Notes: a model not told the origin generated them from the sequence alone. Shown: positions 16,179 to 43,463, counted from the stretch's first letter. The stretch is 64,000 nucleotides of DNA from an uncultured Rhodospirillaceae bacterium (GCA_937880925.1 CALGGB010000095.1:4782-68781); one strand, 5' to 3'. Made by a program: numbers and translations.

Positions 16179-17780
16179 ATGCATTCTCGTCTTTTCACGC
16201 TGGCCGCCGGCGCAGCGCTTACGCTGGTGCTCGCGACGGCACAGGCACAGGCCGATAAGACCCTGGTCTATTGCTCGGAGGGCAGCCCCGAGGGCTTCTA
16301 CCCGGCGCTCTACACCTCGGGCACGACCTTCGATGCCACCTCGCGCACGATCTACAACAAGCTTGTGGAGTTCGAGCGCGGCTCCACGCAGGTCGTGCCG
16401 GGCCTGGCCGAGAGCTGGGAAATCTCCGACGACGGGCTGGAATACACCTTCCATCTCCGCAGCGGGGTCAAGTTCCAGAGCAGCGACAGCTTCACCCCGA
16501 CGCGTGATTTCAACGCCGACGACGTGGTCTTCAGCTTCATGCGCCAGTGGGATCCCGAACACCCCTACCATCTGGTTTCGGGCGGCTCCTACGAGTACTT
16601 CAGCGGCATGGACATGCCCAACATCATCAAGTCGATCGAGAAGGTCGACGACATGACGGTGAAGTTTACGCTCAGCCAGCCCGAGGCGCCGATGATCGCG
16701 AACCTCGCGATGGACTTCGCCTCGATCGTCTCGGCCGAATATGGCCAGGCCATGCTCGATGCCGGCACGCCGGACGCCTTCGACCAGAACCCGATCGGTA
16801 CCGGCCCATTCCAGATGGTGCGCTACGTTCCAGACGAGCGCATCGACTACGTCGCCTTCGACGATTACTGGGCCGGCCGCGCCGCGATCGATCGTCTGGT
16901 CTTCCTGATCACGATCGATGCCACGCAGCGCTACAACAAGCTGCTGGCCGGCGAATGCCACATCATGCCCTATCCCAATCCCGCCGATGTCCAGGCCATG
17001 ATGGACAATCCCGACATCACGGTCATGGAACAGGCGGGCCTCAACGTCGGCTACCTCGCCATGAACGTCGAGCACGCCCCGTTCGACGACGTGCGGGTGC
17101 GCCGCGCCGTCAACATGGCGATCGACCGCGATGCGATCATCGATGCGGTCTATCTGGGTGCAGGCGTCAAGGCCAAGAACCCGATCCCGCCGACGATCTG
17201 GTCCTACAACGACGCGGTCGTGGACTACGAATACGATCCCGAGGCGGCCAAGGCCCTGCTCGACGAGGCCGGTGTCCAGGATCTCAGCGTCACCCTCTGG
17301 GCGATGCCGGTGCAGCGGCCCTACAATCCTAACGCTGCCCGTATGGCCGAACTGATGCAGGCCGATCTTGCCGAGGTCGGCATCACCGCCGAGATCGTCA
17401 CCTACGAATGGGGCGAGTATCTGGAGCGTTCGTCCAAGGGCGAACACGACATGGTCCTGCTCGGCTGGACCGGCGACAACGGCGATCCCGACAACTTCCT
17501 CAACGTTCTTCTGGGTTGTGCGGCGGCCAAGGACGGCCCCAACCGCGCCCGCTGGTGCGACGAGGACTTCGAGGCGCTGATCTCGCAGGCCAAGCAGATC
17601 AGCGATGTCGATCAGCGTACCGATCTCTACGAACAGGCCCAGGTCGTGTTCAAGGATCAGGCCCCCTGGGTGACGATCGCCCATTCGGTGGTCTTCATGC
17701 CCATGACCAACAATGTGCAGAACTATCTGATCGATCCGTTCGGCGGCCACGTGTTCTACGGCGTCGATCTGGCTGAATAA
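16179..17780 (+). CDS. ABC transporter substrate-binding protein, family 5 (DppA/OppA-like peptide/opine type)
   Basis: ATG 16179 preceded by GGGAGGA. Signal peptide plus family-5 SBP similarity over 530 aa. Confidence 0.85.
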
Positions 17781-17855
17781 CGGACCGCGGGGGCGCTCCG
17801 GTATGCGGGCGGCAGGCGCAAGATTGCCTGCCGCCCGCATCGTTTCAGGCATGCC

Positions 17856-18875
17856 ATGCTGAAGTTCTTCTTTCGCCGCGCCAGCCTCGTCATCCCGACT
17901 TTCCTGGGGGTGACGCTGCTGACCTTCGCGCTCGTCCGCCTCGTTCCCGGCGACCCGCTGGAGATGATGGCGGGTGAGCGCGGCCTGACGCCCGAGCGCC
18001 ATGCCGAACTGATGGCCCAGTACGGCTACGACAAGCCCCTGCTGGAACAGTACGGCCTCTATCTCTACGAGCTTGCCGGCGGCGATTTCGGCCGCTCCGT
18101 CGTTACCAAGAAGCCGGTCCTGCAGGAATTCTTCGAGCGCTTCCCCGCGACCGTGGAACTGGCCGTCTGCGCCATGTTTTTTGCCGTCCTCATCGGCCTG
18201 CCCATGGGCATTCTGGCGGCGGTGCGGCGGGGTACCGTGCTCGACTATGCGGTCATGGGCACGGCCGTCACCGGCTTTTCGATGCCGATCTTCTGGTGGG
18301 CGCTGCTGCTGGTCCTGTTCTTCTCGGTCAACCTGGGCTGGACGCCGGTCTCGGGGCGCATCTCCGCGCTCTACTGGGTCGATGCCCGTACCGGCTTCAT
18401 GCTGATCGACAGCCTGCTTTCCGACGAGAAGGGCGCCTTCCGTTCGGCGGTCAGCCATCTCATCCTGCCGGCGGTGGCGCTGGGCACCATCCCGCTGGCG
18501 ATCATCGCGCGCATGACCCGCTCCTCCATGCTCGAGGTCCTGAACGAGGATTATGTGCGCACGGCGCGAGCCAAGGGCCTTTCGCCCTTCCGCGTCGTCA
18601 CCGTGCACGCCCTGCGCAATGCGCTGATCCCCGTCGTCACCGTTGTCGGCCTGGCGACCGGCATCCTGCTCGCGGGCGCCATCCTCACCGAAACCATCTT
18701 CTCCTGGCCGGGCATCGGCAAATGGCTGATCGAGGCCGTACGCCGGCGCGACTATCCCACCGTGCAGGGCGGTGTGCTGCTGGTCGCCACCATCATCATG
18801 CTGGTCAACCTCCTGGTCGACCTGCTCTACGGCGTCATCAACCCGCGCATCCGCCACGCTTCGGAGCGGACATGA
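17856..18875 (+). CDS. ABC transporter permease (DppB-like)
   Basis: 339 aa with 6 TM segments and the binding-protein-dependent permease EAA-region. Confidence 0.85.
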   Translation: MLKFFFRRASLVIPTFLGVTLLTFALVRLVPGDPLEMMAGERGLTPERHAELMAQYGYDKPLLEQYGLYLYELAGGDFGRSVVTKKPVLQEFFERFPATVELAVCAMFFAVLIGLPMGILAAVRRGTVLDYAVMGTAVTGFSMPIFWWALLLVLFFSVNLGWTPVSGRISALYWVDARTGFMLIDSLLSDEKGAFRSAVSHLILPAVALGTIPLAIIARMTRSSMLEVLNEDYVRTARAKGLSPFRVVTVHALRNALIPVVTVVGLATGILLAGAILTETIFSWPGIGKWLIEAVRRRDYPTVQGGVLLVATIIMLVNLLVDLLYGVINPRIRHASERT

Positions 18876-19768
18876 CCGACCGCACCCTCGATACGGCGCC
18901 GTCAAAGCCGCCCCATCCGCTGCAGGACATCTGGGCCGATTTCCGCCGCAACCGCGGCGCCATGGTCGGCCTGGCGCTGATCCTGATCGTCACCTTCCTC
19001 GCGGTCTTTGCCGATGTCGTCGCACCCTACGGCCCGGCCGAGCAGTTTCGCGATGCCTTCCTCTCACCCCCCGCATGGCTGGAGGGCGGCGATCCCCGCT
19101 TCCTGCTCGGCACCGACGATGTCGGCCGCGACATGCTCTCGCGCCTGATCTACGGCGCCCGCCTGTCGCTGCTGATCGGCGTGGTTGTCGTTACCCTGGC
19201 GCTTGCCGCAGGCGTCACCCTGGGCCTGTGCGCCGGTTTCTTCGGCGGCATTGTCGACATCGTCGTGATGCGCCTGATGGACATCATGCTGGCGCTGCCG
19301 GCCCTGCTGCTCGCCATCGTCATCGTCGCCATCCTGGGGCCGGGCCTGATGAACGCCATGGTCGCGGTGACGGTGGTCGTGGTGCCCCACTACGCGCGCC
19401 TGACCCGCGGCGCCGTGCTCTCCGAACTCGGTCGTGACTACGTCACCGCCTCGCGTGTCGCCGGCGCCGGGCCGTTGCGCCTGATGTTCGTCACGGTCCT
19501 CCCCAACTGCCTCGCCCCGCTCATCGTGCAGGCCACACTCGGTTTCTCCGGCGCCATCCTGGACGCTGCAGCGCTTGGCTTCCTGGGCCTGGGCGCGCAG
19601 CCGCCGACACCCGAATGGGGCTCGATGCTGGCCAACGCCCTGCAGTTCATCCAGCGCGCCTGGTGGGTCGTCACCTTCCCGGGGCTGGCGATCCTTGTCA
19701 CGGTGCTTGCCTTCAACCTGATGGGCGACGGCCTGCGCGACGCCCTCGACCCCAAGCTCAAGAGGTAG
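18872..19768 (+). CDS. ABC transporter permease (DppC-like)
   Basis: ATG 18872 overlaps the upstream stop (ATGA). The longer track ORF from 18296 is an out-of-context extension. Confidence 0.85.
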
Positions 19769-19772
19769 CGCG

Positions 19773-20747
19773 ATGCCTCTTGTGGAAATCCGCAACCTCT
19801 CCGTCCGCTTCGGCAGCCTCACCGCCGTCGACGGCATCGACCTGGTGCTGGAGGAGGGCGATGTCCTGGGCATCGTCGGGGAGTCCGGCTCGGGCAAGTC
19901 CGTCACCTCGCTTGCCCTGCTGGGCCTCATCGGCTTCCCCGGCGTCGTCACCGCCGACCGCATGACCTTTGCCGGGCGCGACCTGCTGCACGTCTCGCCG
20001 CGCGAGCGTCGCAGGATCGTCGGCAAGGACATGGCGATGATCTTTCAGGAGCCCATGACCAGCCTCAATCCCTGCTTCACGGTCGGCTTCCAGATCATGG
20101 AGCAACTCCGCGTCCACGAGGGGCTGGACCGGCGTGCCCGGCGTGCCCGCGCCATCGAACTGCTCGATCTCGTCGGCATCCCCGATGCCGCCTCACGCCT
20201 CTCTGCGTTCCCGCACCAGCTTTCGGGCGGCATGAACCAGCGCGTGATGATCGCCATGGCGATCTCCTGCAACCCGCGCCTGCTGATCGCCGACGAGCCG
20301 ACCACGGCGCTCGACGTCACCATCCAGGCGCAGATCCTCGACCTGCTGCTCCAGCTCCAGCGCGAACGCGGCATGACCCTCATCCTCATCACCCACGACA
20401 TGGGCGTGGTCGCCGAAACCGCGCGCCGGGTCGCCGTGATGTATGCCGGGCAGGTGATGGAGGAACGCGCCGCGATCAACCTCTTCACCCGACCGCGTCA
20501 CCCCTACACCGCAGCCCTGCTGGAGGCGCTGCCCGAGCGCGCCCTGGGCAAGGGCCGGCTGCCGGCCATTCCGGGCACCGTGCCCGGCGTCTATGACCGC
20601 CCGCCCGGCTGCCTCTTTGCGCCGCGGTGCCGCCTGGCCGACGATGCCTGCCGCGCCGCCGTGCCGCCGCTGCTCGATGTCGCCGACGGCCGCGTGCGCT
20701 GCATCCGCCCGCTGGACGCCCCCATGCCGGTGGAGAGCGCGCCGTGA
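19773..20747 (+). CDS. ABC transporter ATP-binding protein (DppD-like)
   Basis: Walker A GESGSGKS, signature LSGGMNQR, C-terminal oligopeptide-type extension. Confidence 0.85.
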
Positions 20748-21727
20748 GCGAGAAGCCCATCCTGGTCGCCCGCGATCTCGCCCGTTTCTACACCGTGCGG
20801 CGCGGCGCCTTCCGCAAGCCCGCCACGGTGAAGGCGCTGAACGGCGTCTCCTTCGAGCTCTATCGGGGCCGCACCCTGGCGGTGGTCGGGGAATCAGGCT
20901 GCGGCAAGTCGACGCTCGCCCGGCTTGTCACCATGATCGAGAAACCGACCTCGGGCAGCCTGGAGATCGAGGGCCACGACATCGCCACCGCCGGCAAGCG
21001 CGACGTCGAGGATCTGCGCGAGGAGGTCCAGATCGTCTTCCAGGACCCTTATGGTTCGCTCAATCCGCGCCGCAAGGTCGGCGACATCCTGGGTGAGCCG
21101 CTGGCGATCAACCGCGCCATGAGCCGCACCGAGCGCCGCGAGGCCGCGCGCGCCATGATCGAGAAGGTCGGCCTGCGCCCCGAGCACATCGACCGCTACC
21201 CGCACATGTTCTCGGGCGGCCAGCGCCAGCGCATCGCCGTAGGCCGCGCGCTGATGCTGAACCCGAAGATCGTCGTCGCCGACGAGCCGGTCTCGGCCCT
21301 TGACATCTCGATCCAGGCCCAGGTCTTGAACCTGCTTTCGGACCTGCAGCAGGAATTCCAGCTCGCCTATCTCTTCATCAGCCACGACCTCTCGGTCGTG
21401 CGCCACATCGCCGACGACATCATGGTGATGTACCTGGGCCGTCCGGTGGAGCAGGGCGAGGGTGCGGTCGTTTTCGCCGAGCCGCGCCACCCCTATACGC
21501 GCGCCCTGATGGCCGCCACACCCCGTGTCGATCCGCGCCAGCGCGCCGAGCGCGTCATGCTGAAGGGCGAACTGCCAAGCCCCCTCAATCCCCCCAGCGG
21601 CTGCGCCTTTCACACCCGCTGTCCGTTTGCGACATCGCTGTGCAGCGCCGAGCGCCCCGAACTGCGCCCCGTCGCCGGCCGCCTGGTCGCCTGCCACCAC
21701 GCTGAACATTTAGAAAATAGCAGATAG
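20744..21727 (+). CDS. ABC transporter ATP-binding protein (DppF-like)
   Basis: GTG start overlapping the upstream stop. Walker [10 protein letters not shown], signature FSGGQRQR. Confidence 0.85.
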
Positions 21728-21810: not shown

Positions 21811-22641
21811 CTAATTTTCCGGCCCCGCCGGCACCGGCCCCGTCGGGGGATAGCTGCCGTCTTCGTCGTGCAGTTCGTTGCCGTGGAGCGGCGGGTTGAA
21901 GATGCTCAGCACATGGGAGTCCTCGGCGATCCGCACATGATGGCGGTCCCTGGGGCCGACGGCGAAGATGCTGCCGGTGCCGATGTCGTGGGTCTTGCCC
22001 GTGGCGTGGTCGGTGACCACGAGCAGGCCATCGAGCACGATGTTGGCCTCCCAGTGGTTCTTGTACCAGAGTGCCATTTCCTGGCCCTTCCGGAAGCGCA
22101 CGTCCGAGAGGGTGAAACCCAGCCCGTCCGGCGCGGTCAGCAGGCGCGCCCAGCGCGGCGAGCCGCCCTCCTTGACCACGACATGGCCGGCGGCCTCGGC
22201 GTCCTTCCAGGTGCGCACGAACATCGCCGGCTGTCCGGGCGGGATCTCGCCGCCGGGCGGATAGCTGCCGTCTGCATCGTGGCTCTCGCCGCCCTGCAGC
22301 GGCGGGTTGAAGACGCTGATGATGCGGAAGCCTTCGCCACCGGCGTTCTCCAGGCGGTGGCGGTCGGTCGGGCCGACGCAGTAGAGCATGCCGGGTTCAA
22401 GCTGCCAGACCTGGCCGGTGGTCAGGTTTTCCAGCGTGCCCGTGCCCTGGCGCACGTAGTTCGCCTCCCAGTGGTTCTTGTACCAGAGGGTCGCGTTGCC
22501 GCCCGGCGCGCCGCGCGCCTCCGAAAGCGAAAAGCCGATGCCGTCGGAGCGGTTGATCATGCGCAGGGCGCTCGACCTGCCCTGGTTGATGGCGATCAGG
22601 CGATCGCCGCTCTCCATCTCCTCGAGCGTGCGGACCAGCAT
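21811..22641 (-). CDS. Didomain ectoine-synthase-like protein (two tandem EctC-type cupin domains), paralog 6 of 6
   Basis: N-terminus MLVRTLEE mirrors EctC MIVRNLEE. Both halves carry WYKNHWEAN, the cupin motif RH[RH][LV], and NPPLxGxExHDxDGSYPP. Confidence 0.8.
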   Translation of the reverse strand: MLVRTLEEMESGDRLIAINQGRSSALRMINRSDGIGFSLSEARGAPGGNATLWYKNHWEANYVRQGTGTLENLTTGQVWQLEPGMLYCVGPTDRHRLENAGGEGFRIISVFNPPLQGGESHDADGSYPPGGEIPPGQPAMFVRTWKDAEAAGHVVVKEGGSPRWARLLTAPDGLGFTLSDVRFRKGQEMALWYKNHWEANIVLDGLLVVTDHATGKTHDIGTGSIFAVGPRDRHHVRIAEDSHVLSIFNPPLHGNELHDEDGSYPPTGPVPAGPEN

Positions 22642-22657: not shown

Positions 22658-23473
22658 TCAGGTTTGCGGCCCCGGCGGCAGCGGGCCGGTGGGGGGATAG
22701 GCGCCGTCCTCGTCGTGCACCTCGGTGCCCGAAAGCGGCGGGTTGAACAGGCTCACGATGTGGAAGTCGCGCACCGCCTTCAGCGTGTGGCGGTCGTCGG
22801 GCCCCACGGCATACATCATGCCCGGCGTCAGCTTCAGTACCTCGCCGGTGCCGTGGTGGTGCAGTTCGCCCTCGCCGCCGAAGACATAGTTGCCTTCCCA
22901 GTGGTTCTTGTACCAGAGGTTGGCTTCGCTGCCGTCCTGGAAGTGAACGTCCGACCAGGTCAGTCCCAGGCCGTCGGCATCCAGCAGATAGCGCAGCAGT
23001 TGCGAGCCGCCCTTGCTCGTCTTGGCGCGGCCCATGGCCTGCAGGTCCGCCGGGCGATAGACGAACATCGCCTCGTGCCCCGCGGGCGGCGGCGTGGCGC
23101 CGCGGGGATAATTGCCCTCCGCGTCGTGGCTTTCCGTACCGCTCAGCGCCGGGTTGAAGACCCCCAGCACCGTGCATTCGGTGAGGTCCGTGACGCGATG
23201 GTGATCGTTCGGACCGACGCAGTACATGTCGCCCGGCCCAAGTTCCCAGCTCCGCTTCTCGCCCGAAAGCTCCTCCAGCAGGGCGCGGCCGGAGATCATG
23301 TAGCTCGCCTCCCAGTGATGGCGGTACCAGATGGTATGCGGCCCGCCCTTGGGCGCGGTGACCACAGAGATCGAGAAGCCCAGCCCGTCGCCGGCCAGCA
23401 GCAGGCGCTGGGTGTTCGCCCCGCCGTGGGAGATGGCGGTGCCGTTGAGGTCGGTGCGCGTGCGGTGGAACAT
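22658..23473 (-). CDS. Didomain EctC-like cupin protein, paralog 5
   Basis: 271 aa with two EctC-like halves (WYRHHWEAS / WYKNHWEGN; C-terminal NPPLSGTEVHDEDGAYPPTG). Confidence 0.8.
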   Translation of the reverse strand: MFHRTRTDLNGTAISHGGANTQRLLLAGDGLGFSISVVTAPKGGPHTIWYRHHWEASYMISGRALLEELSGEKRSWELGPGDMYCVGPNDHHRVTDLTECTVLGVFNPALSGTESHDAEGNYPRGATPPPAGHEAMFVYRPADLQAMGRAKTSKGGSQLLRYLLDADGLGLTWSDVHFQDGSEANLWYKNHWEGNYVFGGEGELHHHGTGEVLKLTPGMMYAVGPDDRHTLKAVRDFHIVSLFNPPLSGTEVHDEDGAYPPTGPLPPGPQT

Positions 23474-23476
23474 CGC

Positions 23477-24292
23477 TCAGATCCCTCCCGGGCCCGGCGG
23501 CACCGGCCCGGTTGGGGGATAGCCGCCCTTGTCGTCGTGCAGCTCGTCGCCGGCCAGCGGCGGATTGAAGATGCTGACCAGATGCAGGTCGCTGCCCGCC
23601 GTCAGGGTATGGCGATCCTCCGGCCCGACACAGTAGAGCAGGCCGGGCGCCAGAATCAGCGTCTCGCCGGTACCGTGATGGTCGATCGTGCCGCTGCCGG
23701 AAAAGACATAGTTGGCTTCCCAGTGGTTGCGGTACCACAGGTTGGAGACGACGCCGTCCCTGAAATGAACATCCGACCAGGCAAAACCCAGCCCGTCCTC
23801 GGCCAGCAGGTAACGCAGCAGTTCGGCGTTGCCGGAAGCGCTGGTCTTGGCACGGCCCCGCTGCTTCAGATCACCGGGCGTGACGACGAACATGGAAGGC
23901 TGCCCCGCCGGCACGTTGCCGGTGGGCGGATAGGTGCCTTCGCTGTCATGAGTCTCGTCGCCGTTGATCGGCGGGTTGAAGACGCTCATTACCGTCATCG
24001 GCGTCTGCGCGGTGACCCGGTGGCGGTCGGTCGGGCCGACGCAGTACATGTCGCCCGCCGTCAGGTCCCAGGTCCGCCCGCTCGCCACCTCTTCCAGGAG
24101 AAGCTCCCCGGCAATGACGTAGTTGGCCTCCCAGTGGTGCTTGTACCAGAGCTCGTGCGGCCCGCCGGCCGGCCCGGTGACGATCGAGAGCGAAAAGCCC
24201 AGGCCATCGCCTTTCGTCAGGGGCCGCGCCGCGCTCGCCTTTCCGTGGGAGATGGCGACGCCGCGCGCCGTGTCGATGCTGCGATGGAACAT
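23477..24292 (-). CDS. Didomain EctC-like cupin protein, paralog 4
   Basis: 271 aa. Both halves EctC-like (WYKHHWEANYV / WYRNHWEANYV). Confidence 0.8.
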   Translation of the reverse strand: MFHRSIDTARGVAISHGKASAARPLTKGDGLGFSLSIVTGPAGGPHELWYKHHWEANYVIAGELLLEEVASGRTWDLTAGDMYCVGPTDRHRVTAQTPMTVMSVFNPPINGDETHDSEGTYPPTGNVPAGQPSMFVVTPGDLKQRGRAKTSASGNAELLRYLLAEDGLGFAWSDVHFRDGVVSNLWYRNHWEANYVFSGSGTIDHHGTGETLILAPGLLYCVGPEDRHTLTAGSDLHLVSIFNPPLAGDELHDDKGGYPPTGPVPPGPGGI

Positions 24293-28498: not shown

Positions 28499-28549
28499 CT
28501 CCCATCCCCGCGCCTCCGACAAGGTGCCGGGTGATCGCTGGAGTTGCCG

Positions 28550-29689: not shown

Positions 29690-29696
29690 GGCGGCC

Positions 29697-34950: not shown

Positions 34951-35685
34951 TCAGGAGCGGGCACGCAGGGCGTCGCGCACTGCGGTGGCCGGGTCCTCCC
35001 GCTCGCGCAGGTGGCCCGACAGCCGGTGCTCAACGATGCGGAAAATCCACAATACGCCATAGGTGACGGCCAGGTACATGAGGCCGGCGGTGATGTAGAT
35101 CTCGTAGACGTCGAAGGTGCGCGCCACGATCGTGCGCGCCACGCCGGTCAGGTCGAGCAGGGTGATGATCGAGACCAGCGAGGTCGACTGGAAAAGCTGG
35201 ATGACCTCGTTGGAATAGGCAGGCAACGCCAGGCGCAGCGCCTTGGGCAGGATGATGCGCCGGTAGAGCAGCCAGCCCGACATGCCGCAGGCCCGCGCCG
35301 CCTCGACCTCGCCATGGGGCACGGCCTGGATGGCGCCGCGGAAGATCTCGGCGGTGTAGGCCCCGGTGTTGAGCACCAGGGTGAGCAGGGCGCAGAAATA
35401 GGGCTCGCGGAACAGGTGCCAAAGGCCGATCTGCGTCAGTTCCTCGCGGAACTGGCCGCTGCCGTAGTAGATCAGGAAGATCTGCACCAGCAGCGGCGTG
35501 CCGCGGAAGAAGAAGATGAAGGCGATGACCGGGGCACGCACGAAGACGTTGCGCGAAACCCGCATCATGGCCACCGCGACCGCCAGGCAGAAGCCGATCA
35601 GCAGGGCGTAGGCGGTGAGTTCGATCGTCAGCCAGAGGCCGCCGAACATGGCGGGCAGGCTGTCGATGATGACCTGGGTGTCCAT
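34951..35685 (-). CDS. Polar amino acid ABC transporter permease (HisM/EhuD-like)
   Basis: 244 aa, multi-TM, polar-amino-acid permease family layout. Confidence 0.75.
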   Translation of the reverse strand: MDTQVIIDSLPAMFGGLWLTIELTAYALLIGFCLAVAVAMMRVSRNVFVRAPVIAFIFFFRGTPLLVQIFLIYYGSGQFREELTQIGLWHLFREPYFCALLTLVLNTGAYTAEIFRGAIQAVPHGEVEAARACGMSGWLLYRRIILPKALRLALPAYSNEVIQLFQSTSLVSIITLLDLTGVARTIVARTFDVYEIYITAGLMYLAVTYGVLWIFRIVEHRLSGHLREREDPATAVRDALRARS

Positions 35686-35689: not shown

Positions 35690-36379
35690 TCAGGCCCTCC
35701 TGACGCCGCGGTTGGCCCAGCGTTCGATCTGCTGCTGGCCGACCATGGAGACCGCGGTGATGCCGAGATACATCATCGCCGCGACGAAGAAGAAATCGAA
35801 CGGCAGCTTGGTGACACCCATCGCGATGAAGGACTTGCGCATCAGGTCGTCGAGCTGGATGACCGAGACCAGCGCCGTCGCCTTGATCAGCACCATCCAT
35901 ACGTTGCCGAGACCCGGCAGGGCAAAGCGCCAGATCTGGGGCAGCATGATGCGCCGGAAGGCCAGTCCCCTGGACATGCCGCAGGCATAGGCCGCCTCGA
36001 CCTGGCCCTTGGGCACCGCCAGGAAGGCGCCGCGGAATACCTCGGTGGCAAAGGCGCCGTAGATAAACCCCAGGGTGAGCACCCCGGCGGTGAAGGCATT
36101 GAAGTCGACGCGGATGTCGTGGCCCAGGCGCGCGGCCAGCGCCTGCAGCAGGGTCGGCGTGCCGTAGAACACGATCAGCAGCAGCAGCAGCTCGGGGATG
36201 CCGCGGATCACGGTGGTATAGGTGTTGGCCGCCAGTCTGGCCGCGGGGTTGCGCGCCAGCTTGCCCCAGGCCCCCAGCAGACCCATGACGATCGCCAGCA
36301 GCAGGGCGCAGACACCGACCTCCAGCGTCGTGGCGAGCCCCTCCCAGAGCATCCAGCCATAGCCCTTCAGGTCGAACAT
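35690..36379 (-). CDS. Polar amino acid ABC transporter permease (HisQ/EhuC-like)
   Basis: 229 aa, multi-TM, paralogous to the adjacent permease. Confidence 0.75.
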   Translation of the reverse strand: MFDLKGYGWMLWEGLATTLEVGVCALLLAIVMGLLGAWGKLARNPAARLAANTYTTVIRGIPELLLLLIVFYGTPTLLQALAARLGHDIRVDFNAFTAGVLTLGFIYGAFATEVFRGAFLAVPKGQVEAAYACGMSRGLAFRRIMLPQIWRFALPGLGNVWMVLIKATALVSVIQLDDLMRKSFIAMGVTKLPFDFFFVAAMMYLGITAVSMVGQQQIERWANRGVRRA

Positions 36380-36466: not shown

Positions 36467-37258
36467 TCATTCGCCGTAGACGTTGAAGTCGAAGTACTTG
36501 TCGTTGATCGCCTTGTAGGTGCCATCGGCCAGAATCTGGGCCAGGGCGGCGTTCAGCGCGTCCTTCAGTTCGGTGTCTTCCTGGCGCACGGCGATGCCGG
36601 CACCGTCGCCGAACCACTGCGGATCGGAGTAGTCGGGCCCGACGAAGTTGAAGCCCTGACCCATGTCGGTCTGCAGGAAGCCCTCGTCCAGCGCCACGGA
36701 ATCGGCAAGCACCAGGTCGACGCGGCCGTTGGCCAGATCGAGATTGGCCTCGTCCTGGGTCGCGTAGCTCATCAGGCCGACATCGGGGAAATTGTCCTTG
36801 ATGAAGTTCTCGTGGATCGTCGCGCGCTGCACGCCGACCTTCAGGCCGGACAGGGCGGCGTTGGCGGCAGCCGTGTCGGGCGGGATCTCGGTCATGAAGT
36901 CCTCGGCCGCGATGAACTTGGCCGGCGTGTTGTAGTACTTGTTGGTGAAGGCGACGACCTCGGCGCGCTCTGCCGTGATCGACATCGAGGCGATGATGGC
37001 GTCGTATTTCTTGGCGAGCAGGCCGGGGATGATGCCGTCCCAGTCCTGAACGACGAATTCACAGGTGAAGCCTGCGGCATCGCACAGGGCATTGGCGATA
37101 TCGACGTCGAAGCCCTGCAGGTCGCCGTTCTCGTCGATGTAGTTGAACGGAGGATAGGCGCCCTCCGTGCCGATCAGCACCACGTCCTGGGCCGTTGCCT
37201 GCTGGGCAAAGAGGCCGGAGACGGTGAGTGCCAGTGCGGCAGCGAACATTTTCTTCAT
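36467..37258 (-). CDS. Polar amino acid/opine/ectoine-type ABC transporter periplasmic binding protein (family 3; EhuB/LAO-like)
   Basis: Signal peptide MKKMFAAALALTVSGLFAQQATA plus family-3 SBP pattern. Confidence 0.75.
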   Translation of the reverse strand: MKKMFAAALALTVSGLFAQQATAQDVVLIGTEGAYPPFNYIDENGDLQGFDVDIANALCDAAGFTCEFVVQDWDGIIPGLLAKKYDAIIASMSITAERAEVVAFTNKYYNTPAKFIAAEDFMTEIPPDTAAANAALSGLKVGVQRATIHENFIKDNFPDVGLMSYATQDEANLDLANGRVDLVLADSVALDEGFLQTDMGQGFNFVGPDYSDPQWFGDGAGIAVRQEDTELKDALNAALAQILADGTYKAINDKYFDFNVYGE

Positions 37259-37321: not shown

Positions 37322-38119
37322 TCAGGCGGTCAGATTGCTCGCCAGGAATTGCCGGAACCGCTCCGATCTGGGGTTGCCGAACATCTCGTCCGGCGGCCCC
37401 TGAACCTCGATCCTGCCTTCGTGCAGGTAGATGACCTCGTTGGAAACCTCGCGCGCAAAGCCGATCTCGTGGGTGACCACGATCATGGTGCGGCCCTCGT
37501 CGGCAAGCTGGCGCATGACACGCAGCACCTCGCCGACCAGTTCGGGATCAAGGGCGCTGGTCGGTTCGTCGAACAGCATCACGTCGGGCTCCATGGCCAG
37601 GGCGCGCGCAATGGCCGCGCGCTGCTGCTGGCCGCCCGAAAGATGGGCCGGGTAGTAGCTCGCCCGGTCGGCAAGGCCGACCTTCTCGAGTGTGGCGTGG
37701 GCAATCTCAAGCGCCTCGGCGCGGGATTTCTTCAGCACATGGATCGGCGCCTCGATGACGTTCTGCAGCACCGTCATGTGGGACCACAGGTTGAACGACT
37801 GGAAGACCATGCCGAGGCGCGAGCGGATGCGGTCGACCTGCTTGCTGTCGGCCGGCACGGTCTCGCCGCGCCGGTTCCTGGTCATCGCGATCAGCTCGCC
37901 GCCGACGCTGACCTCGCCCGCATCGGGTATCTCCAGAAGATTGATGCAGCGCAGGAAGGTGCTCTTGCCCGAGCCGCTGGCGCCCAGCATGGCGATGACA
38001 TCGCCTTCCTGCGCGGTCAGCGATACCCCCTTCAACACTTCCACGGAACCAAACGACTTGTGGACATCCGTTGCCACAAGCGCCGGTTGCCGAGCCACCG
38101 CCTGTGCGGCTGCAGCCAT
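37322..38119 (-). CDS. Polar amino acid ABC transporter ATP-binding protein (HisP/EhuA-like)
   Basis: ATG 38119 (MAAAAQAV...). Walker A GASGSGKST, signature LSGGQQQR, Walker B MLFDEPTSALD. Confidence 0.8.
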   Translation of the reverse strand: MAAAAQAVARQPALVATDVHKSFGSVEVLKGVSLTAQEGDVIAMLGASGSGKSTFLRCINLLEIPDAGEVSVGGELIAMTRNRRGETVPADSKQVDRIRSRLGMVFQSFNLWSHMTVLQNVIEAPIHVLKKSRAEALEIAHATLEKVGLADRASYYPAHLSGGQQQRAAIARALAMEPDVMLFDEPTSALDPELVGEVLRVMRQLADEGRTMIVVTHEIGFAREVSNEVIYLHEGRIEVQGPPDEMFGNPRSERFRQFLASNLTA

Positions 38120-38243: not shown

Positions 38244-39479
38244 TCAGGCGATGGAATCCAGCGCCCTGATCAGCCGGTCGACCTCGGCCGCCGTGTTGTA
38301 GTGGACGAAGGAGCAGCGCACGGCGCCGTCCTCGGGATCGATGCCCATGGCCTTCAGCACGCGCGGCGCATAGAAGTCGCCGGCGTTGGCGGCAATGCCG
38401 GCGGCGTCCAGATGGGCCATCACCGCCTGCGAGGACATGCCCTCGACCGTGAAGCTGAAGGTCGGGGCACGGCGGTCGTGATCGGGATCGGTGCGGCCCA
38501 GCAGCTTGATGCGCGGGTTGGAGGCGACGTAGTCGAGGAACCTGCGCGACAGGTTCTCCTCGTGCGTGGCGATCAGCTTGTAGACCTGCCGGATGCGCCC
38601 GTGCAGGTCGTTGGCCGGTTCCTCCAGGTGGTGGGCGGCCAGGGCCTCGAAGTATTCCCCGATGCCGACGCAGCCGGCGGTCAGCTCGTGGTTCGGCGCG
38701 CCGGGGTTCATCTTCAGCGGCAGGTTGTCCTCGCCGTGGAAGTAGAAGTACTGCCCCTTGGCCTTCAGCAGCAGTTCCTTGCGCCCGTACATCACGCCCA
38801 GATGCGGACCGAAGGTCTTGTAGAGGCTGAAGAGGTAGAAATCGACGTCCAGCGCCTTCACGTCGACGCAGCCGTGGGGTGCGTAGGCGACGCCGTCGAC
38901 GCAGACCAGGCCGCCCACGGCATGGACCGCATCGGCGATCTGCTTCACCGGATTGGGACCGCCCACGACGTTGGAGCAGTGGGAGAAACACACCAGCCGC
39001 GTTTTCTCGCTGAGCATGGGTTTCAGCGTCTCCAGCTCCAGCTCGGCGGTCTGCGGATTGACCTGCCATTCGCGCACCGTGATGCCGAATTCCTCCAGGC
39101 GCCGCCAATGGCCGTTGTTGGCCTCGTGGTCGAGGTTGGTGACGATCAGTTCGTCACCCGGCTTGAACCAGCCGCGCACGCCCGCGGCCAGCGCGATGAC
39201 ATTGCGCGTCGTGGAGGGGCCGATAACCACCTCCTCGGGCTCGGCGTTCAGCATGGCGGCCACGGTCCTGTGACCCTGCGCCATGCGCCGGCTCGCCTCG
39301 CGCGCGATGGGCGAGCCTTCGCCGGGCTGCACCTGGCACTCGGTCATGTAGTCCTTCACCCGGTCGATCACCGTATGCGGCACCAGCGAGCCGCCTGCGT
39401 TCTCCATGAACGCCCAACCGTCGTTGAGCGCGGGAAAGAAGGAACGGACGAATGTGAGATCGAGCGGCTTGTCGGCCAT
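38244..39479 (-). CDS. Aminotransferase class V-fold PLP-dependent enzyme
   Basis: 411 aa with class-V fold similarity. Candidate PLP-lysine context FSLYKTFGPH. Confidence 0.65.
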   Translation of the reverse strand: MADKPLDLTFVRSFFPALNDGWAFMENAGGSLVPHTVIDRVKDYMTECQVQPGEGSPIAREASRRMAQGHRTVAAMLNAEPEEVVIGPSTTRNVIALAAGVRGWFKPGDELIVTNLDHEANNGHWRRLEEFGITVREWQVNPQTAELELETLKPMLSEKTRLVCFSHCSNVVGGPNPVKQIADAVHAVGGLVCVDGVAYAPHGCVDVKALDVDFYLFSLYKTFGPHLGVMYGRKELLLKAKGQYFYFHGEDNLPLKMNPGAPNHELTAGCVGIGEYFEALAAHHLEEPANDLHGRIRQVYKLIATHEENLSRRFLDYVASNPRIKLLGRTDPDHDRRAPTFSFTVEGMSSQAVMAHLDAAGIAANAGDFYAPRVLKAMGIDPEDGAVRCSFVHYNTAAEVDRLIRALDSIA

Positions 39480-39541: not shown

Positions 39542-40759
39542 TCAGTCGATGAGGATGCCATCCCAGGGCCAGCGGTAGGTTTCGCCCAGGCCCTTGAGGA
39601 CTGCCGCGGCAATGGCCCCGCCGTTGGTTCCGCCGGTCATCACCACTGCGCCCTGGCCTGTGGCGGGGAAAAACACCATGTAGCCGCTGTACCCTGCGCC
39701 GCTGCCGCTCTTGTGCAATGCCAGACTGCTGCCTTCGCCGGCAAGGGCAAAACCCAGGCCCCAGGGGCCACCGTTCTGGCGCGTCAGCATCTGGCCGGCG
39801 ATCGCGGAGCCGAGCAGATCGCCCCGGCCCGCGTGCGCTTTGCCCAGGGCAATCAGGAATGCGGAAAGATCGGCCGGGGTCGACCAGAGCCCGGTGGCGG
39901 CGCGCGCAGGCCGGTTCATCCAGCCACCGGGGATCGGGTTGCCTCGGCCGTCATGCCCGGGTGCGGCAATGACCGCCAGGGTATCGCCGGCCGGCTGCTC
40001 GAAGCTGCTGGCGGGCATGTCTGCGGGGACCAGGACGCGCGCCCGCGCGAGCTCACCGAAGTCGACGCCCGTCGCGCCCTGCATGGCGACCTCCAGCACG
40101 ACAAAGCCGCTGTCGGATACGGCAAAGGCTGTGCCGGGCGCGCTGATGATCCTGAGCGGTGGCGAATTGGCCGGCGGCGCTCCCGCCAGGATCTGGGCAA
40201 GCGTCGGCAGGGGCGCGCCCTGCGGATAACCCTGAAAGCCGGGCTCTGCGAAGCCCGCGGTCATGCTCATCAGGTTGCGCAGGGTCACGGGGTGGTCGGA
40301 CATGGCAAGGCGCCAGCCATCGACCCACTGGCCGACATCGTCGTCGAGCGTCAGGTAGCCTTCCTCAACCAGGCTGAGAGCGGTGGCTGCGCTGACCGGC
40401 TGGGCCATGGCGCCGGCCTGGAACGGCGTCGTCGGACCGATGCCCTCGCCCCAGCTGCGTGTCCAGGCGAGCGTCCCACCCTCGATCACGGCAAGGCTGA
40501 CCGATGGCACATGCAATTCTTTCATGGCCGCTGCGACGGCGATGTCGCGGGCGGTGTCCTCGCCGGGCAGGGCGAGGCTGACGACGATAGGCTCCAGCGT
40601 CGTGCCGGCGCCGCCGCCCTGGGCCACGGGAAAGGCGCCGTGCTGGCAGGCGCCGGCAAGCAGCAGGACCAGCACCGGCAGCAACGTTCCGGTCAGCCGC
40701 GCGATTGTATGCGGGCGTCCGGCGTTGCGCCCGGATTTGTGAGTGATTCTGAACATCAT
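39542..40759 (-). CDS. Beta-lactamase-fold / serine-hydrolase-like lipoprotein. A canonical SxxK was not evident.
   Basis: Start MMFRITHK... followed by lipobox LLLAGAC. Fold-level similarity to class C beta-lactamase and esterases. Where SxxK is expected the sequence reads GAMAQP. Confidence 0.5.
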   Translation of the reverse strand: MMFRITHKSGRNAGRPHTIARLTGTLLPVLVLLLAGACQHGAFPVAQGGGAGTTLEPIVVSLALPGEDTARDIAVAAAMKELHVPSVSLAVIEGGTLAWTRSWGEGIGPTTPFQAGAMAQPVSAATALSLVEEGYLTLDDDVGQWVDGWRLAMSDHPVTLRNLMSMTAGFAEPGFQGYPQGAPLPTLAQILAGAPPANSPPLRIISAPGTAFAVSDSGFVVLEVAMQGATGVDFGELARARVLVPADMPASSFEQPAGDTLAVIAAPGHDGRGNPIPGGWMNRPARAATGLWSTPADLSAFLIALGKAHAGRGDLLGSAIAGQMLTRQNGGPWGLGFALAGEGSSLALHKSGSGAGYSGYMVFFPATGQGAVVMTGGTNGGAIAAAVLKGLGETYRWPWDGILID

Positions 40760-40787
40760 GCGGGGGTAGCCCGCCCGGCCCGGGCTT

Positions 40788-41627
40788 TCAAAGGCTTTCT
40801 TGCGCCCGGCGGGACTCCAGCACGGCGGCCACGCGGGGGCCGTAGATATGGATGTTCTCGCGGTCGGTGGCGATGCGGTCCGGGCGGCCGTCATAGCTCA
40901 GCACGGCGGTAATGCGGGGGCGGTTGCCCTGGACCTCGCTCACACGGTGCAGGGAATACATGCCGCGGAACACGGTCAGGGTCCCGGCATCGCGTACCGG
41001 GCGCACCACGCCGGGGTGGCGGCCATCGATGGCGGCGGCGACGCCTGCCAGGTTTTCATCGGTTTCGCTGCGGATCGCGGGCACGAATTCGAAGTCGCCA
41101 CCGGCTTCCGGTGCCTGCAGCAGCAGGGTCACGGCGAACTCGCCCTGATCGTAGTGCCAGGGCTGGTGGTGGCCGGAATGCAGATAAATCAGGTTCAGGT
41201 TCTGGAATTCATCGGCCATGGGGTAGAGCGCCTCGTAATCCAGGATCTGCCGGAAGAACTCGGTCAGCGCGCCCCACTGGAACAGCGCGCGGCAGCCGGT
41301 GCCCCCGGGAATCGCATCACCTGCAAGCTGGTGCATGCGGTAGTGCCAGTAGCGCCGCCGCGGGTCGTCCTGCGGCAGTGCCGGATCGTCGAGGGTGAAG
41401 TAGGCATTGCGCCGCCCGTCCTGGCGATAGGCCATGTCCTCCAGGCCCAGCGCTTCCTCACGCATGGCGGCGACCGCCTCTTTCCGCACGAAACCGGTGA
41501 GGTTGCAGCAGCCGTTGGTTTCGAGCTGGGCGCGGCAGGATGCGACCAGCGCCTGGCCTTCAGGCGTATCGAGGCGGTCGACGGGATAACGCTCGAGATC
41601 GACCAGACTGGCGGCGGGCGATGTCAT
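40788..41627 (-). CDS. Putative Fe(II)/2-oxoglutarate-dependent dioxygenase (PhyH-like HxD...H), paralog B
   Basis: WHYD motif (HQPWHYDQGEF) and a distal His (FRGMYSLHRVSE). Real start is probably MTSPAASLVDLERYP at 41627, immediately after the upstream stop. Confidence 0.45.
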   Translation of the reverse strand: MTSPAASLVDLERYPVDRLDTPEGQALVASCRAQLETNGCCNLTGFVRKEAVAAMREEALGLEDMAYRQDGRRNAYFTLDDPALPQDDPRRRYWHYRMHQLAGDAIPGGTGCRALFQWGALTEFFRQILDYEALYPMADEFQNLNLIYLHSGHHQPWHYDQGEFAVTLLLQAPEAGGDFEFVPAIRSETDENLAGVAAAIDGRHPGVVRPVRDAGTLTVFRGMYSLHRVSEVQGNRPRITAVLSYDGRPDRIATDRENIHIYGPRVAAVLESRRAQESL

Positions 41628-42505
41628 GGAGCTTTGGCGGCCTCCCTGCGGCGGCGATAGATCTCGGCCACGCGGGGGCCGTAGATGAATGTATTGCCGC
41701 GCTCGCCGGCTACGCAATCGGGCTTTTCGTCATAGGTCATGATGGCGGTGATGCGCTGGTCCTTGCCTTTCACCGGCGTCACGACGTGAAACGCGTTGCG
41801 GCCGCGGAACAGGGTCAGCGTGCCCGCGCCACGCTCCAGGGTACGAACCTTGCTCATGTCGCCGTCAAAGATGCGGCTGATCGTCTCGTAGTCGGGGTTG
41901 CCGTCCTGGCGCAGTTCGGTGGCGTAGTTGAAATCGCCGCCCTCTTCGCTGGCCTGCAACAGCAGGGTGATGGTGAAGTCGTTGGCGTCGAAGTGCCATG
42001 GCTGCATCTCGCCATCGGCCAGCGCCGTCAGGTTCAGCGCCTGGAATTCGTCGGCCATGCGGTAAAGCGTGTCGCGCCCCTCGACGACGCGGATGAATTC
42101 GGTCAGCGGATCCCATTCGTAGATCGTGCGGATCAGCGCATCGACGGGGATCTGGTCGTAGGCAAGCTGCAGCACGTCGTCGGGCCACTGGCGGCGGCGG
42201 GGATGGCCTTCGGGATACTCGGGCTCATCTTCATGGAAGAAGGCGGTGCGCACCCGCTTCTTCTTCAGGCCGCCCTTGAGCAGGTGTTTGGCTTCTTCAG
42301 CGAGCGCAGGCAGGGCCTCCTGGCGCACGAAACCGTGGAGGTTGGCCGCGCCCTGCTTGGCGTACTGGCGCCTGCAGTCATCGATCAGCGCCTGCCACTG
42401 AGGAGAACCGATCCTGTCGAGGGGATAGCGGTCGAGGTCGATCAGGTCGGCGATGCTGGCTGGCGTGTTCATGCGCGCTCCGTTGGCAAGTGTTTTGACA
42501 AGCAT
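41624..42505 (-). CDS. Putative Fe(II)/2-oxoglutarate-dependent dioxygenase (PhyH-like), paralog A
   Basis: Paralogous to 40788-41627 (LDRYPLDRIGSPQWQAL...; PWHFDANDF...; FRGRNAFHVV). Confidence 0.45.
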   Translation of the reverse strand: MLVKTLANGARMNTPASIADLIDLDRYPLDRIGSPQWQALIDDCRRQYAKQGAANLHGFVRQEALPALAEEAKHLLKGGLKKKRVRTAFFHEDEPEYPEGHPRRRQWPDDVLQLAYDQIPVDALIRTIYEWDPLTEFIRVVEGRDTLYRMADEFQALNLTALADGEMQPWHFDANDFTITLLLQASEEGGDFNYATELRQDGNPDYETISRIFDGDMSKVRTLERGAGTLTLFRGRNAFHVVTPVKGKDQRITAIMTYDEKPDCVAGERGNTFIYGPRVAEIYRRRREAAKAP

Positions 42506-42662
42506 TGCGCAATCTTCTCGCCCGTCAATGAAGCAACGCTGATCTTGCGAACGATTCGCAACATTTTCGGACGCTGTTGCATGCCTGCGTCATCAGCCCT
42601 TGCGCGGCCGTTGGACTTCGCCGCACGCCGTGCAAAGGTTCGCCGCGCGCAGAGGGGGAACC

Positions 42663-43463
42663 ATGGCGGGACGGCTGCAGGACAAGGTGGTGCTGGTGAC
42701 GGGCGCGGGTTCCGTGGGTCCCGGCTGGGGCAACGGCAAGGCCGCCAGCGTGCTTTTCGCCCGCGAGGGGGCGCGGGTCTTCGCCATCGACCGTGACCTT
42801 GCCGCCGCCCGGGTCACCGCCGACCTGATCGCCGGAGAGGGCGGCCGCTGCGCCACCTTCCAGGCCGACGTCACAGACAGCGCTGCGGTCAAGGCCGCCG
42901 TCGATGCCTGCCTTGCCGAATTCGGGCGGCTGGACGTGCTCCACAACAACGCCGGCGGTTCCGCGCCGGGCAATCCGGTGACCATGGAGGAGGAGGTCTG
43001 GGAGGCCCAGATCGCGCTCAACCTCACCAGCGTCTTCCTCACCTGCAAACACGCCGTCCCCGTGATGCAGGCCCAGGGCGGCGGCGCCATCGTCAACGTC
43101 AGCTCGCTCGCGGGCGTGCGTTACTTCGGGCGCGACAACATCGCCTATACCGCGGCCAAGGCGGGGCTCCACAAGTTCACCGAGCAGATCGCCGTGCGCT
43201 ACGCGCCCGAGAACATCCGCGCCAACACGGTGATCGCCGGCCTCATGCACACACCGCTGGTCGAGGCCCGTCTGCTCAAGCAATACGGTGACGGCGACCG
43301 CGAGAAGCTGATCGCCGAACGCAACGCCATGGTCCCCATGGGCCGCATGGGCGATGCCTGGGACGTGGCGCACGCCGCCCTGTTCCTGGCCAGCGACGAG
43401 GCCAAGTATGTGACCGGGGCGCAGCTTCTGGTCGACGGCGGCATCACCGCCAAGTGCAACTGA
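42663..43463 (+). CDS. SDR family oxidoreductase
   Basis: ATG 42663. VTGAGSVGPGWGNG cofactor loop. Catalytic YTAAKAG. Confidence 0.8.
   Translation: MAGRLQDKVVLVTGAGSVGPGWGNGKAASVLFAREGARVFAIDRDLAAARVTADLIAGEGGRCATFQADVTDSAAVKAAVDACLAEFGRLDVLHNNAGGSAPGNPVTMEEEVWEAQIALNLTSVFLTCKHAVPVMQAQGGGAIVNVSSLAGVRYFGRDNIAYTAAKAGLHKFTEQIAVRYAPENIRANTVIAGLMHTPLVEARLLKQYGDGDREKLIAERNAMVPMGRMGDAWDVAHAALFLASDEAKYVTGAQLLVDGGITAKCN

Follow-up and report, generated by a model that had tools for sequence, protein, structure and literature searches.

Gene content and organisation of the cluster

The DNA analysed here (the window, 64,000 nucleotides) comes from an uncultured Rhodospirillaceae bacterium (GCA_937880925.1, CALGGB010000095.1:4782-68781). 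The subject of this work is the gene block at 16179-43463 and its flanks, which encodes two ATP-binding cassette (ABC) importers, several hydrolases and six proteins made of two fused EctC-like domains, hereafter bicupins. Genes were called by third-position G+C content (GC3) and annotated with Pfam and NCBIfam models, and their starts were refined against identical genes called on metagenome contigs. The Pfam scan covered the window genes except a few called open reading frames (ORFs). An earlier reading of this DNA from the sequence alone (the sequence-only reading) had listed the gene content, and every gene was found at the same coordinates or within a few codons of them. The genes of the block formed five transcription units, with an orphan family-3 binding protein and a short-chain dehydrogenase/reductase (SDR1) lying between units:

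15182-16060, plus strand: SMP-30/gluconolactonase-like (SGL) gene (PF08450, 210 bits)
16179-21727, plus strand: unit 1, dppABCDF, gene gaps of -4 to 75 bp
16179-17780, plus strand: Dpp-type binding protein (SBP_bac_5)
17856-18875 and 18872-19768, plus strand: Dpp-type permeases (BPD_transp_1/OppC_N)
19773-20747 and 20744-21727, plus strand: Dpp-type ATPases (ABC_tran+oligo_HPY)
28025 down to 21811, minus strand: unit 2, bic6-gcvT-bic5-bic4-bic3-bic2-bic1, gaps of 3-52 bp
21811-22641, minus strand: bic1, two PF06339 (Ectoine_synth) stretches
22658-23473, minus strand: bic2, two PF06339 stretches
23477-24292, minus strand: bic3, two PF06339 stretches
24297-25124, minus strand: bic4, two PF06339 stretches
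25134-25946, minus strand: bic5, two PF06339 stretches
25999-27174, minus strand: GcvT-like gene (folate-binding aminomethyl/methyl-transferase-like; PF01571+PF08669), inside the bicupin operon
27186-28025, minus strand: bic6, two PF06339 stretches, first gene of the operon (start taken from an identical called gene, 279 aa)
28151-31930, plus strand: unit 3, cupin-cphZ1-cphZ2-cphZ3, divergent from the bicupin operon across 125 bp
28151-28498, plus strand: small single-domain cupin of 115 aa (PF07883, Cupin_2), first gene of its unit
28550-29689, 29697-30806 and 30803-31930, plus strand: three tandem CphZ/AotO-like M14 zinc hydrolases (PF24827, AstE_AspA)
31927-32673, minus strand: orphan periplasmic family-3 binding protein (PF00497, SBP_bac_3, 45.9 bits)
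32736-33482, plus strand: SDR1 (PF13561/PF00106)
42472 down to 33506, minus strand: unit 4, nine genes (two Fe(II)/2-oxoglutarate enzymes, S12 hydrolase, PLP enzyme, four ABC importer genes, sulfatase)
33506-34939, minus strand: sulfatase (PF00884), last gene of this long operon
34951-35685 and 35690-36379, minus strand: permeases of a Lys/Arg/Orn-type importer (Pfam)
36467-37258, minus strand: binding protein of the same importer (Pfam, TIGR01096)
37322-38119, minus strand: ATPase of the same importer (Pfam)
38244-39479, minus strand: Fgm3/UstD-like pyridoxal 5'-phosphate (PLP) enzyme (PF00266, Aminotran_5; TIGR01976)
39542-40759, minus strand: S12-type beta-lactamase-fold hydrolase (PF00144)
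40788-41627 and 41624-42472, minus strand: two HalD/BesD-family Fe(II)/2-oxoglutarate enzymes (PF23169)
from 42663, plus strand: unit 5, SDR2-CMD and the genes that follow
42663-43463, plus strand: SDR2 (Pfam), divergent from the hydroxylase operon
43510-44043, plus strand: CMD/AhpD-like protein (Pfam), just beyond the end given in the sequence-only reading

The SGL gene, which that reading had overlooked, lies directly upstream of the Dpp-type importer and keeps this position in identical metagenome contigs; its membership of the cluster is uncertain. The block had been described as an island. In the sense of a mobile or horizontally acquired element this was abandoned, as the G+C content (0.63-0.71 over the window) was 0.63-0.70 within the block versus 0.64-0.71 outside, no compositional shift, tRNA or integrase was found at the block edges, and the sole tRNA and insertion sequence (IS) element of the window lie at 61.6-63.6 kb. 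The block is thus a chromosomal gene cluster rather than a mobile island. No regulator gene was present inside it and a scan of the block for riboswitches and other regulatory RNAs found none, while promoter and terminator scans gave counts not above those of shuffled sequence. A promoter-like site at 16081-16108 precedes the gene for the Dpp-type binding protein. The hydroxylase operon and SDR2 diverge from a 190-bp region that contains, at 42542-42564, a 10-bp palindrome (ATCTTGCGAA nnn TTCGCAACAT); it is a candidate operator, though no regulator gene is close by.

The bicupins retain the EctC iron site and lose the ectoine contacts

The six bicupins are 270-280 aa long and carry two full EctC domains each. 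They scored 133-233 bits with PF06339, and the three paralogs scored with NF009806 reached 140-233 bits, above its cut-off of 128. The two halves of bic4 each aligned along the whole EctC domain, with about 83-85 bits. Identity of bic2-bic6 to bic1 was 38-50%, and the gaps between bic1 and bic5 were of 3-16 bp. We compared the 12 halves with the Paenibacillus lautus EctC structure, in which the iron ligands and the contacts to N-gamma-acetyl-diaminobutyrate (DAB) have been assigned (PMC6344544). The iron ligands Glu57 and His92 were retained in 11 of the 12 halves and Tyr84 in 10, the remaining two having Phe. Tyr52, His55 and Phe106 were kept in all 12 and Arg25 in 10. The N-terminal half of bic5 was degenerate and had lost its metal site. 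The residues that touch the substrate methylenes, carboxylate and alpha-amino group in EctC are Trp21, Asn38 and Thr40 (PMC6344544). Trp21 was lost in 12/12 halves, Asn38 was replaced by Ser in 11/12 and by Ala in the remaining one, and Thr40 was replaced by Val, Leu or Ala in 12/12. Judged from these positions, the Lewis-acid iron centre is conserved and the contacts to the alpha-amino group, carboxylate and methylene chain of N-gamma-acetyl-DAB are not. With three ectoine-contact positions replaced, two of them polar contacts, the six bicupins are not ectoine synthases, and ectoine itself is an unlikely substrate.

The likeness to EctC (PDB 5ONM/5BXX) consists of the whole-domain alignment and the kept iron ligands. 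However, EctC is a homodimer of ~130 aa subunits encoded with ectA and ectB, whereas the window bicupins are fused didomain proteins with no ectA or ectB nearby, present as six paralogs in a setting of import and hydrolase genes. EctA-, EctB-, DoeA-, DoeC- and DoeD-type domains were absent from the Pfam-scanned window genes, a few called ORFs lying outside that scan, and no EnuR-type gene occurred in the window. The description of six non-canonical didomain EctC-like genes in a window lacking the canonical ectoine genes was therefore upheld, and the suggestion of ectoine-like or other compatible-solute substrates found no support in the analyses made.

The AlphaFold2 model of bic4 was a compact bicupin (predicted local distance difference test score, pLDDT, 95.9; predicted template modelling score, pTM, 0.93). 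Its closest whole-chain structural neighbours were quercetin dioxygenase, oxalate decarboxylase, salicylate dioxygenase and ureidoglycine aminohydrolase, at 11-16% identity, and these matches to the model reflect the generic bicupin fold. Some bicupins also bear quercetin dioxygenase-like database names and O2-dependent enzymes occur among their neighbours, all of which would suit iron-dependent oxygenases or lyases that cleave C-C, C-N or C-S bonds of imported solutes, comparable to quercetinase, gentisate dioxygenase or the cupin lyases of dimethylsulfoniopropionate. We consider this improbable, as sequence similarity is to EctC only, the conserved set is EctC's unusual Glu/Tyr/His ligands of a non-redox Lewis-acid site, and the fold match is a generic one. 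A Trp and an Asn in a HWEAN motif are specific to the bicupin family and presumably line the pocket together with Arg25, Ser38, Asp39 and Tyr52.

Distribution of the bicupins and their genomic partners

A word-indexed search of 90%-identity clusters returned 611 bicupin relatives, nearly all of about 275 aa and metagenomic, often named 'ectoine synthase' in the source databases. The EctC superfamily as a whole gave 515 matches in an exhaustive search of 1.84 billion representatives (50% identity), with 29 at E <= 1e-30. Since this superfamily is so rare, and yet six intact paralogs share one operon, the array is not due to chance. The best 80 bicupin loci in GTDB species genomes all came from metagenome-assembled genomes (MAGs). 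Among the hosts were Rhodospirillaceae, other Alpha- and Gammaproteobacteria, Binatia, Rokubacteria/Methylomirabilota, Entotheonella, Gemmatimonadales and Dehalococcoidia. The family is nearly confined to uncultured bacteria and is plentiful in their marine, sponge-associated and soil lineages. Our literature search on fused EctC bicupins (tandem EctC, or EctC with Rieske or TauD) found nothing, and a review of ectoine mentions only 'solitary EctC-type proteins' with unresolved function.

In a neighbour-joining tree of 116 bicupins, the window paralogs fell into the clades bic1, bic2/3, bic4, bic5 and bic6, each of which had orthologs in other genomes. The array is probably not a recent amplification, because its paralogs belong to these separate old clades. 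Arrays of four to six bicupins recurred in Rhodospirillaceae and other MAGs (loci L001, L007, L008, L048 and L078 in our numbering). In the relatives L001-L003 bic1 was missing, L001 having five bicupin copies. At 4716-5528 of L001, and also in L002 and L003, a PF06314 acetoacetate-decarboxylase (ADC)-family gene lies between bic5 and bic4 on the opposite strand (the bic4 ortholog being 93% identical). An MppR/enduracididine-type link through this gene was dropped, as it matched generic acetoacetate decarboxylases only, with 34 bits. A distant array was that of a Dehalococcoidia MAG (L071, OZ240215.1, 2101-20927), with six bicupin paralogs of equal length (277 aa) in a row. Upstream of them were two DoeA-like M24 genes, a DAO flavoenzyme and a PD40-repeat-like protein, and downstream an Amidohydro_2 gene, an arginase-family gene and two M20 deacylase genes. 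This six-copy set is an independent expansion of the family. Arrays that stand beside DoeA-like M24 enzymes and N-acyl amino-acid deacylases would fit ring opening to an N-acyl diamino acid followed by deacylation.

Across 82 bicupin loci the most frequent adjoining genes were oxygenases. A GbcA-like Rieske oxygenase adjoined the bicupin in 19 (median gap 27 bp) and a TauD-family dioxygenase in 10 (median gap 11 bp). Other genes seen repeatedly within 10 kb on either side were glutamine-synthetase-like ligases, DoeA-like M24 hydrolases, luciferase-like and Baeyer-Villiger monooxygenases and PhyH enzymes. The best model for the Rieske partners was GbcA, and the TauD partner came near the taurine dioxygenase cut-off. 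L005 8088-11684 is a compact, translationally coupled operon of Rieske, bic6-type and bic4-type genes with gaps of 1-2 bp and a convergent TauD gene 8 bp downstream. Related Rieske-bicupin arrangements were seen in the Alphaproteobacteria MAGs L061, L063, L073 and L074, some beside hydantoinase A/B or a polyamine-type binding protein. Dpp/Opp systems adjoined the bicupin in about 10 of the 82 loci; this adjacency was dropped as evidence, being too near the background expected in Alphaproteobacteria.

The oxygenases are the strongest statistical association of the bicupins, and with the coupled operons, the identity of the partners and the Rieske gene that lies inside the module of L008-L010 beside gcvT and a bicupin, they favour an explanation in which the bicupins process unstable products of Rieske, TauD or Fe(II)/2-oxoglutarate hydroxylation of small N/S osmolytes such as betaines, taurine-like sulfonates or methylated amines. 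They would, for instance, dehydrate or cyclise carbinolamines or amino-aldehydes, the GcvT-like protein would capture the one-carbon unit and the CphZ-like genes would be separate and merely adjacent. However, neither a Rieske nor a TauD gene adjoins the window array, and the closest Rieske gene (6049-7188) is only 27-28% identical to the partner type. Furthermore, CphZ-like genes co-occur with bicupins in L001, L004, L008-L010 and L025, with two bicupins and two or three CphZ-like genes in L004 and L025, and no EctC chemistry is known on such intermediates. We regard this explanation as unlikely, if a serious competitor.

Three CphZ-like hydrolases and a Lys/Arg/Orn-type importer

The three AstE_AspA proteins had been called DoeB-like deacylases. 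TIGR02994 (DoeB) gave 32.2, 31.6 and 28.5 bits versus a cut-off of 402.7, which ruled out a DoeB/EutE label. In contrast, all three matched AbCphZ (PDB 8EIN/8EIP) along their full length, over about 360 residues, with 205-227 bits. The residue roles of CphZ, where D222 and E223 are both essential, have been reported by Sharon et al. 2023 (PMC9974463). All three paralogs kept in full (7/7) the zinc triad H50/E53/H179, the catalytic E251 and the C-terminal carboxylate clamp R102/N112/R113. The guanidinium pocket D222/E223 had become D-A, K-S and D-H in paralogs 1, 2 and 3, and the aspartyl-recognition pair D181/K366 H/V, A/A and A/H, respectively. The kept catalytic residues and the changed pocket suggest active-looking CphZ/AotO-type hydrolases with retuned specificity. 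In the aot operon, aotO adjoins a Lys/Arg/Orn-type ABC importer, and likewise the window paralogs are accompanied by one. The window set differs in consisting of three old tandem paralogs with altered pockets, in a window with no cyanophycinase or cyanophycin synthetase gene. The small cupin that opens this unit contains an H-x-H...E...H metal motif.

The second importer had been likened to Ehu/His systems. Its binding protein passed the Lys/Arg/Orn (LAO) model (TIGR01096, 264.9 versus 256.35) and fell far below the EhuB model (TIGR02995, 72.4 versus 190.9), so the Ehu label was ruled out; by its model scores this importer is of the LAO type. For the first importer, the best model of the binding protein by far was DppA (NF043070, 795.6 bits), below the equivalog cut-off of 1005. 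The orphan binding protein was divergent, Ala/Leu-rich and equipped with a signal peptide, and gave 77.6 bits with TIGR01096, below the cut-off. The logic of the cluster may nevertheless resemble that of the DoeA/DoeB (EutD/EutE) and Ehu/Ueh systems, which combine a ring opener, a deacylase of the AstE/AspA superfamily and an ABC importer, and DoeA-like M24 genes do accompany the bicupin arrays of Dehalococcoidia. The window differs from these systems in its DoeB (28-32 versus 402.7) and EhuB (72 versus 190.9) scores and in having no DoeA-, DoeC-, DoeD- or EnuR-type gene.

A PLP enzyme and two probable hydroxylases may point to basic amino acids

The gene annotated in the sequence-only reading as a class-V aminotransferase was reassigned to the Fgm3/UstD-like aldolase/retro-aldolase family. 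It passed TIGR01976 (cysteine-desulfurase-like, VC1184 family; 356.3 versus 352.35), and its PDB matches, both over the full length, were Fgm3 with 274.6 bits and UstD with 199.9 bits. The S-x-Y-K PLP motif was kept, and the residue two positions past the PLP lysine was Phe as in UstD, Fgm3 having Tyr. UstD catalyses a decarboxylative aldol reaction. For Fgm3, PLP-dependent retro-aldol cleavage of (S)-gamma-hydroxy-L-arginine has been reported (PMC10367076). Both enzymes belong to fungal biosynthetic pathways, fusaoctaxin (Fgm3) and ustiloxin (UstD). Cleavage of gamma-hydroxy-L-arginine would fit the amino-acid hydroxylases adjacent to the window enzyme and the Lys/Arg/Orn importer.

These hydroxylases had been described as PhyH-like dioxygenases. 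They belong instead to the HalD family (BesD/HalD amino-acid halogenases and hydroxylases; PF23169, 43-50 bits), with the motifs H-Y-D and H-F-D and no sequence match in the PDB. Fe(II)/2-oxoglutarate radical halogenases carry HxG/A instead of HxD/E. The window pair shares the family and the two-His metal motif of BesD/HalD but has HxD, not HxG/A, and weak scores; a halogenase reading was rejected on this motif, and the pair is predicted to be hydroxylase-type. The GcvT-like protein fell below all NCBIfam cut-offs, its best models being the C-terminal part of Tdm, GcvT and DmdA. The sulfatase has the intact CxPxR motif (C-V-P-A-R) that had been reported for it, and no signal peptide, which places it in the cytoplasm. 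Its best model, the choline-sulfatase BetC (TIGR03417), gave 273.6 bits, below the cut-off of 433.45. For the S12 protein the best PDB matches were Pab87, alkaline D-peptidase and the R61 DD-peptidase, with ClbP-type peptidases among its weak matches. By these similarities the S12 hydrolase is D-peptidase/esterase-like. The S12 and sulfatase genes are classed as accessory parts of the cluster.

Biosynthetic roles are known for EctC, UstD and the BesD/HalD family. The UstD-like Phe and the ClbP-type matches of the S12 protein also agree with a biosynthetic cluster, in which the hydroxylases, a C-C-forming UstD-like enzyme and EctC-like cyclases would produce a cyclic amidine solute or natural product, or a basic amino acid in modified form. 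Against this stand two importers with binding proteins, three carboxypeptidase-like hydrolases, the sulfatase and the alpha/beta hydrolases just downstream of the block, in a surrounding window where peptide-catabolism genes are plentiful. In addition, the scanned genes of the block included no ligase, acyltransferase, methyltransferase, nonribosomal peptide synthetase (NRPS)/polyketide synthase or exporter. We therefore hold a biosynthetic role to be quite improbable. The catabolic reading is preferred because of the two importers and the many hydrolases, and because no ligase, NRPS or exporter occurs among the scanned genes; the view of the block as a catabolic, import-linked cluster for amino-acid derivatives thus stands.

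Parts of the cluster are conserved beyond the species level

Identical proteins in the same gene order were found on at least 16-18 metagenome contigs from several samples. In related genera, subsets of the block recurred at 64-80% identity (L008-L010 and L095), which bears out its conservation in part, since it was never complete in one locus. In L008-L010 the bicupins were 64-75% identical to those of the window, and these loci carried subsets of the CMD, PLP enzyme, SDR1, orphan binding protein, CphZ-like, small cupin, bicupin and gcvT genes. The sulfatase, importers and hydroxylases were not detected in them. The PLP enzyme of L093-L095 was 80-90% identical to that of the window. L093 kept the complete window order from NMT1 to SDR1, and L095, an 80%-identity relative, had CMD, SDR2, one HalD-like gene, the PLP enzyme, the LAO importer, SDR1 and two CphZ-like genes. 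The S12 gene was not detected in L094 or L095, and L095 also lacked the sulfatase, so that the sulfated derivatives proposed in the sequence-only reading would be an accessory feature at most.

The small cupin had an ortholog in L008 (75% identity), where the orphan binding protein also had one, with a tblastn match in L009. The GcvT-like gene had a bicupin-adjacent ortholog in L001 and in L009 (72% identity in the latter), and in L040 a gcvT homolog lay less than 3 kb from the bicupin. SDR1 orthologs of 69-89% identity were found beside the module in L008, L009 and L093-L095, PLP enzyme orthologs of 74-90% identity beside CMD in L009, L010 and L093-L096, HalD-family homologs beside the PLP enzyme in L093-L095, and the linkage of the Lys/Arg/Orn importer was kept in L093 and L095. 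A large part of the enzyme set thus stays linked across species boundaries, at 64-80% identity, although no locus contained all of it.

The Dpp operon, the sulfatase and the S12 hydrolase varied among relatives and were absent from some, and the bicupin array itself varied among close relatives, as in L001 with its five copies and inserted ADC-like gene. Together with the five separate transcription units and the lack of a shared regulator, this would be expected if there were no single pathway, just independent nutrient-scavenging operons side by side. However, the bicupin, CphZ-like, small cupin, SDR, PLP and CMD genes remain linked at 64-80% identity in several genera, and sets of bicupin and CphZ-like genes recur in more distant Alphaproteobacteria, which makes mere juxtaposition very improbable.

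Outside the block, the window contains an Amidohydro_1 gene at 12465-13790 (the precomputed Pfam annotation of an identical copy also gives DHOase) whose counterparts in L006 and L009 (69% identity in L009) also lie close to the bicupin module. Its product may be another ring-opening amidohydrolase of the same metabolism.

A proposed route for the breakdown of basic-amino-acid derivatives

Altogether, we propose that the cluster serves the import and breakdown of derivatives of basic amino acids (of the Arg, Lys, Orn or diaminobutyrate type), and not of ectoine, in an uncultured marine Rhodospirillaceae-like alphaproteobacterium, a reading to which we give a probability of about 45%. Uptake would occur through the Dpp-type and LAO-type importers. 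The bicupins, using a Lewis-acid iron as in EctC, would reversibly add or remove water across an amide or amidine carbon and so open cyclic amidines or cyclised N-acyl diamino acids to linear N-acyl amino acids for deacylation by the zinc hydrolases; the six old paralogs might cover different ring sizes or acyl groups. The CphZ-like enzymes would cut the imported N-acyl or isopeptide conjugates into a basic amino acid and an acid, and the Fe(II)/2-oxoglutarate enzymes would hydroxylate the freed amino acid at the gamma carbon. Retro-aldol cleavage by the Fgm3-like enzyme would then yield a small amino acid and an amino- or guanidino-aldehyde, which the SDRs would process further by redox tailoring, and the GcvT-like protein would hand a one-carbon unit to folate. 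The loss of Thr40, a contact to the alpha-amino group, would fit alpha-N-acylated substrates, the kind that CphZ-type enzymes cut. We counted the recurrence of the bicupin theme in Dehalococcoidia, and in Alphaproteobacteria with CphZ-like genes, as independent support.

Several observations weigh against this proposal. The opening of cyclic amidines by the bicupins is its weakest step and is unproven. The commonest bicupin neighbours elsewhere are Rieske (19/82 loci) and TauD oxygenases, not deacylases, and the bicupin reaction may therefore depend on oxygenase products, not on cyclic amidines. The pocket residues of the CphZ-like proteins differ from those of CphZ, the Asp of CphZ being Lys in paralog 2, so it is not certain that they accept a basic side chain. 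With its UstD-like Phe in place of the Fgm3 Tyr, the PLP enzyme could catalyse an aldol-forming rather than a cleaving reaction, and the HalD-family scores of the hydroxylases are weak (43-50 bits). As the block holds no regulator, co-regulation of its units is a presumption only. Dpp/Opp systems are frequent in Alphaproteobacteria and their adjacency to bicupins (about 10/82) may be incidental. Finally, the candidate substrates of every step are putative.

Other genes of the window

At 4915-7188 a BetI-type TetR regulator gene is followed by a gene for a GbcA-like Rieske oxygenase (138 bits, the glycine betaine monooxygenase cut-off being 670). The 772 aa ORF at 7400-9718 contains two complete acyl-CoA dehydrogenase units, with the N, M and C domains twice each; its ortholog in L009 is 402 aa only, with 77% identity. 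Downstream of the cluster, a two-domain, P-loop DUF1611 gene precedes an MR_MLE enolase-superfamily gene (46856-49022), a pairing that matches DgcN/DgcA, the D-glutamate catabolism pair of marine bacteria. This pair and the S12 D-peptidase-like gene hint at the use of D-amino-acid peptides. A 283 aa protein with two stretches of GFA (glutathione-dependent formaldehyde-activating enzyme) is encoded at 54054-54905, adjoining a second Opp-type importer (50066-53961) and an S15 X-Pro dipeptidyl peptidase (54929-56971). The only mobile-element signature of the window lies far from the cluster, at 61589-63891, and consists of a tRNA-Val (GAC) followed by an IS21-type IstB ATPase gene (62757-63578) with an unannotated ORF upstream.

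Implications

The cluster is of a known kind, a nutrient-scavenging gene cluster, and its centrepiece, the bicupins, is an uncharacterised and widespread enzyme family. A bolder suggestion, which we offer tentatively and hold to be rather unlikely as it stands, is that the bicupins are a new family of iron-dependent hydro-lyases acting on unrecognised natural cyclic amidine or cyclised N-acyl diamino-acid metabolites of marine and soil dissolved organic nitrogen. The six-clade array and the three retuned CphZ-like hydrolases would then form a dedicated salvage pathway, widespread in uncultured Alpha- and Gammaproteobacteria, Binatia, Rokubacteria and SAR202-like Dehalococcoidia.

EctC is treated as diagnostic for ectoine producers, and counting mislabelled bicupins would inflate metagenomic estimates of ectoine synthesis. 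To judge from the cluster, basic amino acids might be broken down by hydroxylation followed by retro-aldol cleavage, and CphZ-type hydrolases might accept a wider range of substrates. The bicupins are closely coupled to oxygenases and deacylases of small nitrogen compounds. Knowledge of the bicupin reaction would allow hundreds of gene clusters to be assigned a function, and a new class of substrates in dissolved organic nitrogen might come to light.

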